Shown: piece after piece, positions 4,368 to 12,907 of the stretch
How the letters are laid out: the number at the start of each line of letters is the position of its first letter
Numbering within the stretch: the first letter of the stretch is position 1
Assembly (NCBI GenBank): GCA_004213955.1
Contig: SGZL01000001.1
Location: 43,041 to 107,040, forward strand
Length of the DNA stretch: 64,000 nt
DNA from: Gammaproteobacteria bacterium
GTDB taxonomy: Bacteria; Pseudomonadota; Gammaproteobacteria; Magnimaribacterales; AG-339-G14
Reading direction: 5' to 3'
The notes under the pieces: generated by a model
Database searches by the model: none
Seen by the model: only the letters and a program-made list of their open reading frames with translations
What the model was told of the DNA's origin: nothing
Position numbers and translations under genes: made by a program

Positions 4368-5333
4368 TTGATTGATCCAAAATCTCTGATAATTCCTCAT
4401 TTGCAAGAAAATAAGACGTGCTATGTTGCTTACAGCGGAGGAGTTGACTCAACTGTACTGCTTTATGAAGTCGGAGAAGCAGCTAAAGATATCAAATGCA
4501 ATGTTGTGGCAATACACATCAATCATGAATATTCTAAATATTCCGGGCAATGGGAAAAGCATTGCAAAAGCTTTTGTAAAGATTATGGATTAATCTTAAA
4601 AAAATTTTCTTTCAAATCTAATAATTTAAAAGGAGCAAGCCTTGAATCTTTGATGAGAGAAAAAAGATATAACATCTTTGAGAAAGTTTTGAGTAAGGAT
4701 GAAATTTTGTTTATGGGGCATCATCTAGACGACCAAATTGAAACATTATTTTTTAGAATGTTAAGAGGATCTGGCTTAAAGGGTTCCTCTTCTATCCCAG
4801 CAAAACGAGCTTTAGGAAAGGGAATCTTAATAAGACCGTTTCTTAAATTATCTAAGAATGATCTTATCGAAATAGCTAAAAGAAAAAAATTGAGTTATGT
4901 TGAAGATGAATCAAATAATAATATTGAATTTGATCGAAATTATTTACGAAACGAAGTTATATCAAAAATTTCAAAAAGATGGCCAAATTATAGAAAAAGT
5001 CTTTCAAAATATATAGATAATAATAAGGCGTCATATGATTTTTTAAGCAAAACTTCATCCCAAGAACTTAAAAATATTCTCGTTGAGGAAAAAATCAATG
5101 TAGAGAAATTAAAAAAATATGATTCCGAATATCAAAAGATACTAATCTTGAATTGGTTGGAATCAAAAAAATTTAGATTGCCAAGTTCCCAAGTCTTAGA
5201 AGAATTAACAAAATCTTTTTTAAATACTAAAAAAACAAGCCAGCCTAAATTTATCTGGGGCTCCAAAGAAAAAGGCAATTACGTATGTTTGAGAATAAAA
5301 AAAGGGTTTATGTCTGCAGAATCTAATCTATAG
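4368..5333 (+). CDS. tilS: tRNA(Ile)-lysidine synthetase, short form
   Basis: VAYSGGVDS PP-loop, GHHLDDQIET, LIRPFL, DESN..FDRNYLR; follows accA; TTG start. Confidence 0.92.
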   Translation: MIDPKSLIIPHLQENKTCYVAYSGGVDSTVLLYEVGEAAKDIKCNVVAIHINHEYSKYSGQWEKHCKSFCKDYGLILKKFSFKSNNLKGASLESLMREKRYNIFEKVLSKDEILFMGHHLDDQIETLFFRMLRGSGLKGSSSIPAKRALGKGILIRPFLKLSKNDLIEIAKRKKLSYVEDESNNNIEFDRNYLRNEVISKISKRWPNYRKSLSKYIDNNKASYDFLSKTSSQELKNILVEEKINVEKLKKYDSEYQKILILNWLESKKFRLPSSQVLEELTKSFLNTKKTSQPKFIWGSKEKGNYVCLRIKKGFMSAESNL

Positions 5334-7005
5334 ATTTATTGATTCCGCTAATTATTGCTTCAAAAGATGCTGCAACAGTGTTTGAGTTAATTCCTATTCC
5401 CCAGAAGGTCTCATCTTTGATAGATATTTCTATATAAGCTGCAGCTGAAGCATCTGCACCAGAGGAAATTGCATGTTGATGGTAATCTGATATTTTTATT
5501 GACGAATTAAGTAATTCACTCAAAGCATTAATACAGGCTTCGATAGGACCATTTCCTTCACCGCTTATTTCAACTTCTTTTCCCTTAAAATTTATATTAA
5601 GTTTTAGGACATCAGAGTTAATCTTGTTGGAGGAATTCTCTGAACTAATACTATGACTCAGATATTTTAAGCTCGTTCCAACGTCAATATAATTTTTTTT
5701 AAATTCTTGCCATATTTCCTCAACCTCAATCTCTTTACCACTATCATCTGTTATTTCTTGAATAACTTTTGAAAAGTCAATTTGTAATCTTCTGGGCAAC
5801 GATAAGCCATGATCTTTTTCTAATAAATATGCAACGCCTCCTTTTCCTGATTGACTATTTATCCTAATAACAGCTTCATAAGTTCTGCCCACATCTGCAG
5901 GATCTATAGGTAAATATGGAACTGCCCATTTAGGATCATTGGATTCTCTCATAGCATCAAAACCCTTTTTGATGGCATCTTGGTGAGATCCTGAGAAAGC
6001 AGTAAAAACTAAATCACCAGCATAAGGATGACGAGGATGAACAGGCAATTGATTACAATATTCAACCTCTCGCATAACTTTGTTTATATCAGAAAAATCT
6101 AACTTTGGATCTATGCCTTGAGTTAGTTGATTAAGAGCTAAAGAAACAATATCAACATTACCGGTTCTCTCTCCATTACCAAATAAAGTGCCTTCAATCC
6201 TATCAGCTCCTGCCATAAGCCCTAGTTCAGCTGCAGCAACTGCAGTCCCTCTGTCATTATGGGGATGAAGACTTAATAATATATTATCTCTATCGATAAG
6301 ATTTTCTGACATCCATTCTATTTGATCCGCATAAATATTTGGTGTGGATAATTCAACAGTTGCAGGTAGGTTCATAATTGTCTTATTTGATTCAGTAGGC
6401 TCCCAAATTTCATTAACTCTATTACACACTTCTAGAGCGTATTCCAATTCGGTTCCAGTAAAACTTTCTGGGCTATATTGAAACTGCCAATTTACATCTT
6501 TCATTTCAGATGCTAAATTTTTTACTAATTCAGCACCATCTGTTGCTATTTTGGTAATACCACTTTTTTCTTTATTAAAAACAACTTTTCTTTGAAGTGT
6601 AGAAGTTGAATTGTATAAATGAATAATTACGTTTTTACAATCAGCAACCGACTCAAAAGTTTTTTTGATTAGATGTTCTCTAGCTTGTGTAAGCACCTGT
6701 ATTTGGACATCGTCAGGTATTAATTTTTGTTTAACTAATTCTTGGACAAAATTAAATTCTGTATCTGAAGCTGATGGAAAGCCTATTTCAACTTGTTTGA
6801 ATCCCAGTTCTACAAGCATTGAAAAAAATCTTATTTTTTTTTCAATACCCATAGGCTCTATCAAGGCTTGATTTCCATCCCTTAAGTCAACACTGCACCA
6901 GACAGGGGGTTTAGTGACCTGATTTTCTGGCCATTTCCTAGAATTAAGTTCTACCTTTTTAAAAGCAGAATATTTAGAAGCTGAGCTATTTATAATTTCT
7001 TTCAA
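5323..7005 (-). CDS. leuA: 2-isopropylmalate synthase
   Basis: WCSVDLRDGNQAL, HLYNSTS, LHPHNDRG, GNGERTGNVD, INSQSGKGG, C-terminal regulatory GNGPI motif. Confidence 0.95.
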   Translation of the reverse strand: MKEIINSSASKYSAFKKVELNSRKWPENQVTKPPVWCSVDLRDGNQALIEPMGIEKKIRFFSMLVELGFKQVEIGFPSASDTEFNFVQELVKQKLIPDDVQIQVLTQAREHLIKKTFESVADCKNVIIHLYNSTSTLQRKVVFNKEKSGITKIATDGAELVKNLASEMKDVNWQFQYSPESFTGTELEYALEVCNRVNEIWEPTESNKTIMNLPATVELSTPNIYADQIEWMSENLIDRDNILLSLHPHNDRGTAVAAAELGLMAGADRIEGTLFGNGERTGNVDIVSLALNQLTQGIDPKLDFSDINKVMREVEYCNQLPVHPRHPYAGDLVFTAFSGSHQDAIKKGFDAMRESNDPKWAVPYLPIDPADVGRTYEAVIRINSQSGKGGVAYLLEKDHGLSLPRRLQIDFSKVIQEITDDSGKEIEVEEIWQEFKKNYIDVGTSLKYLSHSISSENSSNKINSDVLKLNINFKGKEVEISGEGNGPIEACINALSELLNSSIKISDYHQHAISSGADASAAAYIEISIKDETFWGIGINSNTVAASFEAIISGINKSID

Positions 7006-7050
7006 TTTTAATTTTAGATTTGGATTAAAATATTATATAGGATTAATTAA

Positions 7051-7344
7051 ATGAAATTTGGCGAGTATATCTTAGAAGAATTAAAATTTGATAAATGGAA
7101 ATTAAATAAAGATTTCCTTTTTAAAAAAAATAAAGTTGTAAAGATAAAAATTAAAAAATTTAGTCCTACTGAAATATCTTTTTTATTTTCTTTATCCATG
7201 TCCTTTGGACTAGATTTTAAAGAAAAAGATTCAAATGAAATTTTAAATTTTTTTGTAGAAAATAAAATTATAAAACCCAATTGTTTAGAAGAGTTTATGC
7301 TTAATCCAAAAAAAAGAAAAAATGCCTGGAAAAAAATCGATTAA
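7051..7344 (+). CDS. holD: putative minimal DNA polymerase III psi subunit (HolD-like)
   Basis: Directly upstream of and overlapping rimI (holD-rimI order). N-terminal YILEELKFDKWKL and C-terminal PNCLEEFMLNPKKRKNAWKKI match the pattern of E. coli HolD termini as I recall them (WQLQQLGITQWSL; PALTDLRANPTARAALWQQI). Confidence 0.62.
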   Translation: MKFGEYILEELKFDKWKLNKDFLFKKNKVVKIKIKKFSPTEISFLFSLSMSFGLDFKEKDSNEILNFFVENKIIKPNCLEEFMLNPKKRKNAWKKID

Positions 7345-7855
7345 ATTTAAATCTTTAGAATTTAAAGATTTAGATCAAATCATGGAAATAGAAAAATTAT
7401 CTAATCCTACGCCTTGGTCAATAGGAAGCTTTATTGACTGTATAAATTCTAGTTATCAAAATATTGTGATATTACAAGATGATTTGCTGTTAGGATTTTG
7501 CATTTCTACAGTTAATTTTACTGAGTCTCATCTTTTGAATATATCAATACATCCTGACTTTAGATCTCAGGGTATGGGTCAAAAGCTTTTGGATAAAACA
7601 GAAAAAGAACTTACTAAAAAAGGAGTATCAGATATATTTTTAGAGGTTAGAAATAGTAATATAGGTGCAATCAGTTTCTATAAAAAAAATGATTACAGAA
7701 ATGTGGGAAAAAGGAAAAATTACTATAGATTATTAGCGGGTAGAGAAGATGGACTTATTTATACTAAACACATAAATCTATCTTCATTTGTTAGTATTTC
7801 AAGGTTTTTTCTTTTCTTTTTAAAAAAAATAATTAGTTTTAATAGGGGGTATTAA
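7322..7855 (+). CDS. rimI: ribosomal protein S18 N-acetyltransferase
   Basis: GNAT motifs NISIHPDFRSQGMG, LEVRNSNIGAISFY, RKNYY...EDG. Confidence 0.9.
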   Translation: MPGKKSIKFKSLEFKDLDQIMEIEKLSNPTPWSIGSFIDCINSSYQNIVILQDDLLLGFCISTVNFTESHLLNISIHPDFRSQGMGQKLLDKTEKELTKKGVSDIFLEVRNSNIGAISFYKKNDYRNVGKRKNYYRLLAGREDGLIYTKHINLSSFVSISRFFLFFLKKIISFNRGY

Positions 7856-9720: not shown

Positions 9721-12462
9721 TTATACTTTTTTTAATACCTTAATATGTTTTTTAGTTTCAGAAATTTTAGTTTTTATTTCTTTCATTTGCATTCTTCTTT
9801 CTTTAATAAGTGATTTTGGCGCATTACTTAGGAATTTTTTATTTTTTAATTGTTTTTGCAAAGATTCAAACTGTACATCCATTTTTTTTGATTTTTCTAA
9901 ATTTCTTTTAATTTCTTCATTTGAATTTATAAGACCTTTTAAAGGAATAAATAGTTTATCGTCTGTTACAAGAATTATAGAAGATGGAGGAGGGCTTGAT
10001 TCATAAATAATATTATTAACACCTCCAAGCCTTTCAAGATATAACTTATATTGATTTAAAGTTTTAAAAGTTTTGTTTTTGCTATCTAAACATAAATCTA
10101 TTTTAACTTTTGGAGATAATTTCATCTCAGCTCTAAAGTTTCTAATACCTACTATTGCAGATTTTATCAGCTCTATTTCTTTAAAAGATTTTTCTGAATT
10201 TATTATTTTTGGAAAGTTTCTTTGGGAAATGCTTTTTTTATTAAACTTATGATATTTTTTGGATTGTTGCCAAATTTCTTCAGTTATGAAAGGTATTATC
10301 GGATGTAAAGCTATTAAAATTGATTCCAGAGATGTTACTAGCGAATTTAAAATTGACCCTTTATCTTTGACTGTTAAATTCTCGCTTTGCAATCTAATTT
10401 TACAGAACTCGATGTACCAATCGCAGTAAATATCCCAAACAAACTCGTAAATAACCTTTGTTGCAAGATCAAATCTATAATTTTCTAAATGAAGGCAATA
10501 TTCTTTCAGAGTTTTATTAAGTTCGTTAAGTAACCATAAATCTTCACTCGATCTCGAAGCGCCTTTCCCAATTTTCTTTTCGTTGCATTGCAATAAAATA
10601 AATCTCGAAGCATTCCATAATTTATTGCAAAAATTTCTATATCCCTCAACTCTTTTTAAATCAAAATTTATGTCTCGACTTCCCGAAGCAAGAGAACAAA
10701 AAGTAAACCTTACAGCATCGGCTCCATAGGGAGAGATTCCATCAGGATATTCTAAAGCCGTCTTATTCGTAATTTTTTGTTTTTGTTTTGGATTTATTAA
10801 GTTTGAAGTTCTTTTGTCTATTAAAGTTTTTAAGTCAATTCCATCAATAATATCTATTGGATCGATTATATTCCCTTTTGACTTTGACATTTTTTCACCT
10901 TCGCCGTCTCTTACTAGTCCATGAATATAGACCTCTTTAAAGGGAACTTCCTTTAGAAATTTATGCGATATCATTATCATTCTTGCAACCCAAAAGAAAA
11001 TTATGTCGAATCCTGTAACTAATACTGAAGTAGGATGGAATTTCTTTAGAAATTTTGTTTTTTTAGGCCAACCAAGCGTCACAAATGTCCAAAGTTGAGA
11101 AGAAAACCAAGTATCTAATACATCTTCATCTCTTGCTAACTTTAGGGTGTTTTTGAGTTTATATTTTTTTCTTACTATTTCTTCAGTCGCGCCTACATAG
11201 ACATTGTCGCTTTCATCATACCAAGCTGGAATTCTGTGTCCCCACCACAACTGACGAGAAATACACCAGTCTCTTATATCATTCATCCAAGAAAAATAAG
11301 TCTTTTCCCAATTAGCGGGAACAAATTTTACTTTTCTTGTTTTTACCAATTTTATTGCATCCTCAGCAAGTTCTCTAGATTTTAAATACCATTGCTTGGT
11401 TAGCATCGGTTCTAAAATTTCTCCAGTCCTTTCACTTCTTGGTACATTATGTTTATGTTCGAGTTCTTTGATGAGAGCTCCACTTTTTTGTAAATCCTCC
11501 AATAATATTTTTCTTGCATCTACAACAGAAAGATTTTGATACTTTTTGGGAACATTTTCATTCAGAAGACCATTTTTATTTAAGATATTTATTATTGGTA
11601 AATTATGCTTTTTACCAATTTCGAAATCATTGAAATCATGTGCTGGAGTAATTTTTAAACAACCTGTGCCAAAACTTTCATCTACGTAATTGTCTCCAAT
11701 AACTTTGATTGACCTTTCACAAAAAGGAACTTCAAATTCTTCGCCTATAAGATTTTTATATTTTTTATCGTTTGGATTTACTGCTATAGCAACATCACCA
11801 AACATTGTTTCAGGTCGGGTTGTTGCTACTACAATAGATTTATTTTTATCGCTATTTTTATAAGCTATATGCCAAATTTTTGAATTTTCTTCTTTTGATA
11901 AAAGCTCTAAATCAGAGATTGCAGTTTGCAAACTCACATCCCAATTTACTAACCTATAGCCTCTATATATCAAATCTTCTTCGTAAAGCGAGCAGAATAT
12001 TTCAGTTACAGCATCACTGAAATCATTATCCATAGTAAATTTTTCTCTACTCCAATCTAATGAAGCCCCCATTCTTTTTAATTGCGAAGAGATAATATTT
12101 CCTGAGCTTGATTTCCATTTCCAAATCTCTTTCTCAAATTTATTTCTACCAATTTTTTCTCTAGATAGTCCTTTATGTTCAAGATTCCTCTCAACAACAA
12201 GTTGAGTCGCGATCCCAGCATGATCGGTTCCCGGCTGCCAGAGAACCTCAAAGCCTTTCAATCTTTTATACCTTGCCAGAGTATCCATTAATGTATTTTG
12301 GAATCCATGACCCATATGAAGATTTCCTGTCACATTTGGCGGAGGAATCATTATGCTATAAGGTTTTTTGTTAGATGAAGCATTAGACCTAAAAAGGTTA
12401 TTTTTTTCCCAAAAGGCGTACCATTTTTTTTCTATTTTTTTTGGCTCAAATATTTTTTTCAT
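9721..12462 (-). CDS. valS: valine--tRNA ligase (start placed at ATG 12462)
   Basis: PPPNVTGNLHMGH (HIGH), KMSKS, WCISRQLWWGHRIP, C-terminal coiled coil; pepA-holC-valS order. Confidence 0.97.
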   Translation of the reverse strand: MKKIFEPKKIEKKWYAFWEKNNLFRSNASSNKKPYSIMIPPPNVTGNLHMGHGFQNTLMDTLARYKRLKGFEVLWQPGTDHAGIATQLVVERNLEHKGLSREKIGRNKFEKEIWKWKSSSGNIISSQLKRMGASLDWSREKFTMDNDFSDAVTEIFCSLYEEDLIYRGYRLVNWDVSLQTAISDLELLSKEENSKIWHIAYKNSDKNKSIVVATTRPETMFGDVAIAVNPNDKKYKNLIGEEFEVPFCERSIKVIGDNYVDESFGTGCLKITPAHDFNDFEIGKKHNLPIINILNKNGLLNENVPKKYQNLSVVDARKILLEDLQKSGALIKELEHKHNVPRSERTGEILEPMLTKQWYLKSRELAEDAIKLVKTRKVKFVPANWEKTYFSWMNDIRDWCISRQLWWGHRIPAWYDESDNVYVGATEEIVRKKYKLKNTLKLARDEDVLDTWFSSQLWTFVTLGWPKKTKFLKKFHPTSVLVTGFDIIFFWVARMIMISHKFLKEVPFKEVYIHGLVRDGEGEKMSKSKGNIIDPIDIIDGIDLKTLIDKRTSNLINPKQKQKITNKTALEYPDGISPYGADAVRFTFCSLASGSRDINFDLKRVEGYRNFCNKLWNASRFILLQCNEKKIGKGASRSSEDLWLLNELNKTLKEYCLHLENYRFDLATKVIYEFVWDIYCDWYIEFCKIRLQSENLTVKDKGSILNSLVTSLESILIALHPIIPFITEEIWQQSKKYHKFNKKSISQRNFPKIINSEKSFKEIELIKSAIVGIRNFRAEMKLSPKVKIDLCLDSKNKTFKTLNQYKLYLERLGGVNNIIYESSPPPSSIILVTDDKLFIPLKGLINSNEEIKRNLEKSKKMDVQFESLQKQLKNKKFLSNAPKSLIKERRMQMKEIKTKISETKKHIKVLKKV

Positions 12463-12907
12463 TTTCTTCAATAAACTCTGGTTTGAGTCCATCTCCTAGG
12501 CATTTTTTGTAGCTTTCTCTTGCTGTGTTTTGAAAGGTTGAGTTATCTGTGATGACAATCTGATAAGTTTTCTTAAAATCACAGTAATTAGATGGTATTT
12601 GAGGATTAAGATTTATTAGATAAAAGAAATCTTCTTCATTTTTTAAACCGGGGTAAGAAATAAGAACATTACAATTTTTTGAATTTTTTTCCGTTGTTAT
12701 TTTGTGAGGAATATATATATCTTCTGGAAAACCCCATAATCTTTCGTTTAGAATTGAGGCCTGTTCCGCATCATTGCATCTTATATTAATTTTTTTTGAG
12801 TCAATTGCTGACAAATCTTCATAAGTGATTCTTCCAGTTAGCTTACAAACAAAATCGATAGCTTTTTCTTCTGTATCTCCAGCTTTTAAAAAGCTTACAG
12901 TACTCAT
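12446..12907 (-). CDS. holC: DNA polymerase III chi subunit, divergent
   Basis: Between pepA and valS; LNERLWGF..YIPH motif; LINL. Confidence 0.8.
   Translation of the reverse strand: MSTVSFLKAGDTEEKAIDFVCKLTGRITYEDLSAIDSKKINIRCNDAEQASILNERLWGFPEDIYIPHKITTEKNSKNCNVLISYPGLKNEEDFFYLINLNPQIPSNYCDFKKTYQIVITDNSTFQNTARESYKKCLGDGLKPEFIEENEKNI

Follow-up and report, generated by a model that had tools for sequence, protein, structure and literature searches.

The DNA analysed here (hereafter the window) is a stretch of 64,000 nucleotides from a gammaproteobacterial genome that amounts to 1.06 Mb on 28 contigs and is estimated to be 93% complete. The G+C content of the window is mostly 29–36%, and is 29% in the region under study, where an open reading frame (ORF) of 97 codons lies between the divergently oriented leuA and the start of rimI. 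The genes and signals concerned are as follows.

5323–7005, minus strand: leuA ORF, the divergent upstream neighbour that delimits the conserved slot
7039–7042, plus strand: Shine-Dalgarno-like AGGA, 8 nt 5' of the ATG, read from the sequence
7051–7344, plus strand: candidate miniature psi (HolD) coding sequence, ATG start, 97 codons
7322–7855, plus strand: rimI (TIGR01575, 108.9 bits against a cut-off of 86.4)
12446–12907, minus strand: holC, encoding chi (PF04364, E 1.4e-18), in a pepA-holC-valS arrangement

A TAA stop directly abuts the ATG of the 97-aa ORF on its 5' side and thereby fixes the N-terminus of the product, while the AGGA may serve as its Shine-Dalgarno sequence. The deduced protein contains 21 Lys among its 97 residues and has a computed pI of 9.6, and the gene shares 23 nt (7322–7344) with rimI, in agreement with the initial annotation, which had described a Lys-rich ORF overlapping the rimI start. 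The position given there for holC is likewise confirmed by the PF04364 match. The ORF had also been presented as hidden and missed by annotation, which does not hold, as it is called in NCBI, JGI, ENA and Tara data and only a name is missing. Two observations concern the flanking genes. The start codons of leuA and the 97-aa ORF are 45 bp apart (7006–7050), and both promoters must therefore be located inside coding sequence or overlap each other. RimI of the window's family is 169–198 aa long as ORF-called and carries a hydrophobic/basic C-terminal tail of 20–30 residues (window 7770–7855; L005 1784–2293; L011 1429–2025; L017 1507–2022), which is similar in kind across genera and is missing from the 144–145-aa RimI of a sister family, f3.

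The exact 97-aa protein is recorded on 38 contigs (NCBI, JGI, ENA, Logan and Tara), as "hypothetical protein" wherever it is named and otherwise without a name. A database search returned 15 relatives at 57–98% identity, nearly all of 94–97 aa and aligning without gaps, and orthologues across genera g1–g4 are 26–98% identical, again without gaps. By profile search, a copy of this short family was located, as a single open frame, in 40 of the 41 sampled genomes of the window's family; its proteins measure 89–99 aa from the start codon, the enclosing stop-to-stop frames being sometimes longer. The shortness of the ORF, the AT-richness of its surroundings and the presence of a 77-aa ORF antisense to it would suit a chance open frame or the decaying remnant of a pseudogene; however, both frame and length are kept across four genera, an identical protein recurs on all of the above contigs, and pairwise dN/dS within the genus is 0.08–0.35, with dS reaching 1.9. 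Furthermore, the lone stop among the 40 family matches (genome G002) falls at the C-terminus, at the end point of a 95-aa form. The probability of a chance or decaying frame is thus negligible, this explanation being effectively refuted already, and the 97-aa ORF is a real, conserved gene under purifying selection.

With respect to the identity of this gene, it had been proposed to encode a minimal psi subunit (HolD) of the DNA polymerase III clamp loader with a shortened core, in part because holD-rimI is a conserved gene order. E. coli HolD, the protein described by PF03603 and by structures 1EM8, 3SXU and 3GLI, is 137 aa long, as had been stated, and its gene overlaps rimI by 32 nt. In f3, which belongs to the same order as the window's family, proteins of 139–149 aa score above the PF03603 cut-off of 22.2 bits (36.5 and 34.9 bits), bear the name "DNA polymerase III subunit psi" in NCBI and JGI, and are encoded between divergent leuA and rimI, that is, in the slot occupied by the 97-aa ORF. 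The same leuA-X-rimI slot holds 89–99-aa proteins in other genera of the window's family, and the leuA neighbour flanks psi in relatives L001–L008 and L011–L019. Additionally, the eight psi genes verified by Pfam elsewhere in the class all have rimI as the next gene downstream. The gene order invoked by the initial annotation is thus found in f3, in E. coli and in eight further members of the class, and the survey of ORFs upstream of rimI that it had suggested supports positional orthology to psi.

Searches that start from the single protein give a different picture. The 97-aa protein alone has no match at E<=10 in Pfam, NCBIfam or PDB sequences, a profile restricted to the window's genus has none among PDB sequences, and a PF03603 search of the entire source genome returned nothing. 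Neither the 97-aa protein nor any other member of the short family reaches the curated PF03603 cut-off of 22.2 bits; six of 14 members match this model weakly, the best at E 5.4e-4 and 20.6 bits, and in some genera of the window's family it is the N-terminus that matches, at E 0.014–0.04. As PF03603 detects psi in only eight of 300 evenly sampled gammaproteobacterial genomes (E<=1e-5), a missing match says little about the absence of psi, and the cut-off is a detection threshold and not a biological feature. The genus profile retrieved 11 proteins from 1.84 billion representatives, all of them members of the short family, with no bridge to annotated psi. When psi HMMs were compared with the 7,175 six-frame ORFs of the genome, the 97-aa ORF ranked second to fourth at E 0.6–0.8, which is noise level. 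The top-ranking match was an antisense frame within a 468-aa gene. Neither the psi HMMs nor PF03603 yielded a better psi candidate among the six-frame ORFs, and a canonical holD elsewhere in the genome was not found, an outcome that favours the psi reading. With single-sequence scores at noise level, the psi homology of the 97-aa protein rests on family profiles and synteny.

Profile–profile comparison (hhalign) was performed with a short-family profile of 16 sequences from four genera and a psi profile of 14 sequences (E. coli HolD, eight Pfam-verified psi from other gammaproteobacteria and five sister-family psi). Early comparisons with small alignments were weak (E 0.022, 0.0016 and 0.002; probabilities of 2–16%), and significance was reached only with broader alignments on both sides. 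Within the short family, proteins of the window's genus and of a neighbouring genus matched at Prob 97% and E 1.1e-10. The comparisons with psi, together with controls that included composition-preserving column shuffles, are given below.

Short family against the 14-sequence psi profile: Prob 93.5%, E 2.3e-7, score 43.1, columns 5–95 against 8–135 (91 columns)
Short family against an independent 26-sequence psi alignment from a protein database: Prob 91.5%, E 8.6e-7, score 41.8, 6–95 against 16–145 (90 columns)
Short family against sister-family psi only: Prob 84.5%, E 6.9e-6, score 36.7, 6–95 against 10–139
Short family against psi from outside the order only: Prob 32.8%, E 4.6e-4, score 26.7, C-terminal 22 columns only
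Window's genus only against the 14-sequence psi profile: Prob 4.8%, E 0.008, score 19.0, 5–95 against 8–135
Best of 200 short-family column shuffles against the 14-sequence psi profile: E 0.025, score 16.9, 19 columns
Reversed short family against the 14-sequence psi profile: Prob 0.1%, E 0.43, score 9.8, 1 column

The alignments to the 14- and 26-sequence profiles are collinear and run from end to end. Of the profile search proposed in the initial annotation, therefore, the family-level part bears out the relationship to psi (E 2.3e-7 and 8.6e-7), while the single protein is without a match to any psi model. The lack of any single-sequence or fold match, psi HMM scores at noise level and a Lys-rich, low-complexity composition would be accounted for if psi had been lost and replaced in front of rimI by an unrelated basic protein of small size, whose likeness to psi would be convergent or compositional. 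Such a replacement is nevertheless very improbable, as the collinear profile alignment scores far above the shuffles that preserve composition and holds against two psi alignments, as intermediates with N-termini matching PF03603 exist in genera g2 and g4, and as the rimI overlap resembles that of E. coli. Position and profile comparison together establish the 97-aa gene, at the level of sequence, as a positional orthologue of psi that is related to it at profile level.

The segments of the 97-aa protein that were compared with psi, in order from the N-terminus, are listed here.

7072–7104, plus strand: N-terminal motif LEELKFDKWKL (residues 8–18), counterpart of the E. coli peptide that binds the DnaX collar
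7114–7143, plus strand: predicted beta-hairpin (residues 22–31) of the AlphaFold model, aligned to the first psi hairpin
7162–7212, plus strand: helix alpha-1, SPTEISFLFSLSMSFGL (residues 38–54), pLDDT 81–90, aligned to the conserved psi helix
7222–7260, plus strand: single predicted helix (residues 58–70) in place of a central strand-helix-strand of ~45 residues, from two models and hhalign gaps
7285–7338, plus strand: C-terminal helix motif LEEFMLNPKKRKNAWKKI (residues 79–96), counterpart of E. coli LTDLRANPTARAALWQQI (residues 108–125)

The N-terminal motif, L8-x2-L11-x4-W16-x-L18, has the spacing of LQQLGITQWSL (residues 9–19) of E. coli psi, and its distance from Met1 is the same. Across the short family, W16 and L18 do not vary. 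The motif reads LKEMGISSW and IKEVGIQQW in relatives, to be compared with LEELKFDKW (residues 8–16) in the 97-aa protein and LQQLGITQW (residues 9–17) in E. coli; the Gly of the psi motif is replaced by Lys in the window's genus. It is this N-terminal stretch that gives rise to the weak PF03603 matches of the relatives, and by analogy with work on E. coli (PMC3197488, PMC11436948) LEELKFDKWKL would bind the DnaX collar. At the other end, L79-x2-F82-x2-N85-P86-x2-R89-x3-W93-x2-I96 is spaced identically to L108..I125 of E. coli psi. Both spacings that had been noted in the initial annotation are thus exact, the one departure being the leading Pro of the C-terminal motif, which is shifted by one residue in E. 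coli. R89, K90, N91 and W93 are invariant within the window's genus, and the C-terminal helix carries a (K/R)(K/R)xxW element as RKNAW at residues 89–93; all 14 reference psi have K/R-x-x-x-W or K-K-x-L-W at the corresponding position. In a post hoc test of the 7,175 six-frame ORFs of the genome, the 97-aa ORF was the sole carrier of the N-terminal motif followed by a relaxed form of the C-terminal motif.

An AlphaFold2 model of the 97-aa protein, built on a family alignment of 14 sequences, has a pLDDT of 77 and contains helices at residues 3–10 (N-terminal and of weak confidence), 39–51, 58–70, 79–84 and 86–95, in addition to a hairpin formed by residues 22–25 and 28–31. In the hhalign alignment the hairpin maps to strands E38–45 and E48–52 of sister-family psi, and the psi helix aligned with alpha-1 ends in ..(A/S)(I/V)GL (compare SPEHQLLKKIMVAVGL of L026 and EQAHRLLDAMLFSIGL of L030). 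A model of sister-family psi (pLDDT 76) presents the elements of the short form in the same order and has, as extra elements, a strand-helix-strand unit (80–87, 89–97 and 104–108) and a strand at 119–122. The models and the hhalign mapping suggest that ~45 central residues of psi correspond to helix 58–70 of the short form, which would thus represent a reduced fold; its predicted topology retains the hairpin and four helices and is short of three strands. A Foldseek search of the PDB with the short model found no psi and nothing below E 1; the control, a model of Pfam-verified sister-family psi, was itself marginal, matching 1EM8 chain B at E 0.098 over 42 columns. Separately, the best Foldseek matches of the sister-family psi model were family-4 uracil-DNA glycosylases (E 0.04–0.09, ~132–135 columns), which ranked above E. 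coli psi, and this hints at a uracil-DNA glycosylase-like fold for psi on the basis of the model.

Taken together, the family-profile homology, the synteny and the finding of no other holD in the genome support the minimal psi with a shortened core that had been proposed, and the 97-aa ORF most probably encodes a miniaturised orthologue of the clamp-loader subunit psi, shorter by about a third than every psi used for comparison.

It is known that the folded part of psi binds chi and that chi in turn binds the C-terminal tail of SSB (PMC11436948, PMC3290774, PMC3197488). The four families of the order, f1 being that of the window, differ in the two subunits.

f1: psi in the short form of 89–99 aa; chi in 25/25 genomes
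f2: proteins of 125–134 aa upstream of rimI, with no PF03603 match at E<=10; chi present
f3: Pfam-verified psi of 139–149 aa; no detectable chi, pepA abutting valS
f4 (0.9–1.1-Mb family): no psi-like gene upstream of rimI; an ORF of 132–133 aa in the chi slot

The f2 proteins (L013 1975–2376, minus; L014 1962–2366, minus; L016 1087–1464, plus; L018 1107–1496, plus) match the psi profile at Prob 94.7% and E 5.7e-8 and are, judged by their sequences, further unnamed psi subunits. In f3, chi was found by PF04364 in none of six genomes, and a search with the window's HolC gave no credible match in seven; pepA–valS junctions were observed at L033 1482–1492, L034 2976–2994, L035 3003–3022 and L039 1481–1492. 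A genome with psi and no chi inverts what is usually seen. According to the literature, psi diverges to such an extent that searches miss it in many genomes that bear chi, and this apparent absence is a puzzle of long standing (PMC3290774, PMC3197488). In f4, the gene just upstream of rimI (L020–L022) encodes an enoyl-CoA hydratase, and the ORF between pepA and valS (L036 1085–1486, L037 849–1250 and L038 1094–1492, all on the minus strand) has no Pfam chi match and aligns weakly, from end to end, with chi in hhalign (E 0.0034); it may represent a highly divergent chi in a family without psi. As the order does not always keep both subunits, the co-presence of chi and psi in the window's genome is no proof of a complex, and HolC is a presumed partner of the short psi. 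The psi of E. coli is not soluble unless chi is present.

In the mechanism that we propose, the short psi would keep three parts of psi in their original order, including the hairpin and alpha-1 followed by the C-terminal helix pair, with one helix standing in for the ~45 central residues that form the strand-helix-strand of the alpha/beta core. Its N-terminus would dock on DnaX, as in E. coli, and its folded remainder would bind chi, the product of holC 5 kb away; chi would hold SSB by its C-terminal tail and so connect the clamp loader with the SSB-coated template. The short psi is probably co-translated with the overlapping rimI. By analogy with E. coli psi, we consider it likely that the bridging of DnaX and chi is retained, as a full function, because the N-terminal peptide, alpha-1, the C-terminal helix and chi itself (25/25) are all kept. 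The predicted loss of three core strands nonetheless makes the survival of the chi-binding surface uncertain. The gene might instead encode half a psi, a descendant that kept the DnaX-binding peptide and lost chi binding together with the central sheet, in which case chi would act alone or alongside different proteins, for instance a YoaA-like helicase. The ~45 missing core residues fit such a protein, as does the report that E. coli psi alone makes the clamp loader more stable and increases the affinity of the loader for the clamp (PMC3197488). Moreover, f3 keeps psi while chi is undetectable there, and psi is therefore of use in this order even where chi is missing. However, alpha-1 and the C-terminal helix, the segments conserved family-wide, are the best conserved outside the N-terminus and also align with canonical psi, and chi is kept in every one of the 25 short-form genomes, and a protein reduced to its DnaX-binding function is accordingly unlikely.

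The candidate short psi may be compared with three known proteins. It has in common with E. coli HolD the location in a gene upstream of and overlapping rimI, the N-terminal peptide, a C-terminal helix of the form L-x2-(F/L)-x2-NP-x2-R-x3-W-x2-I and a genome that encodes chi; it differs in being 40 residues shorter, in matching the E. coli row at 10% identity across the columns aligned by hhalign, in lacking a PF03603 match and in a predicted central sheet that consists of one hairpin. With f3 psi (e.g. L001 1483–1902) it shares the leuA-psi-rimI slot, the order of predicted elements and a profile E-value of 6.9e-6 to 8.6e-7 over 90 columns, whereas f3 psi keeps the strand-helix-strand core and passes Pfam, and f3 genomes are without chi while that of the window encodes it. 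The psi of Pseudomonas (Pae-psi; Jarvis et al. 2005) is similarly invisible to ordinary searches; the "cryptic" pseudomonad psi was recognised by conserved N-terminal and chi-binding residues (PMC3197488; see also PMC3290774). Whereas the short psi would have lost core elements, Pae-psi gained loops and a long disordered N-terminus and has about double the size of its E. coli counterpart.

The advance reported here is one of annotation and evolution and does not include a new mechanism. No subunit of the bacterial replicase is less conserved than psi, and here psi would persist in a streamlined genome of ~1 Mb, where curated models do not recognise it; a "missing subunit" call would thereby be corrected for an abundant marine lineage. 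Within one order, proteins of 139–149, 125–134 and 89–99 aa make up a natural deletion series, with several genomes per family, that may be used to define which parts of psi are needed for the binding of DnaX and of chi. It is conceivable, if somewhat doubtful, that the 89–99-aa marine proteins constitute the smallest functional psi, in which the central beta-sheet has given way to one helix while the binding of both DnaX and chi is kept. Finally, the order contains lineages with psi and no chi as well as lineages with a chi-like protein and no psi; if this is true, both "accessory" subunits would be kept or lost independently, which would challenge the view of psi as a mere bridge for chi.
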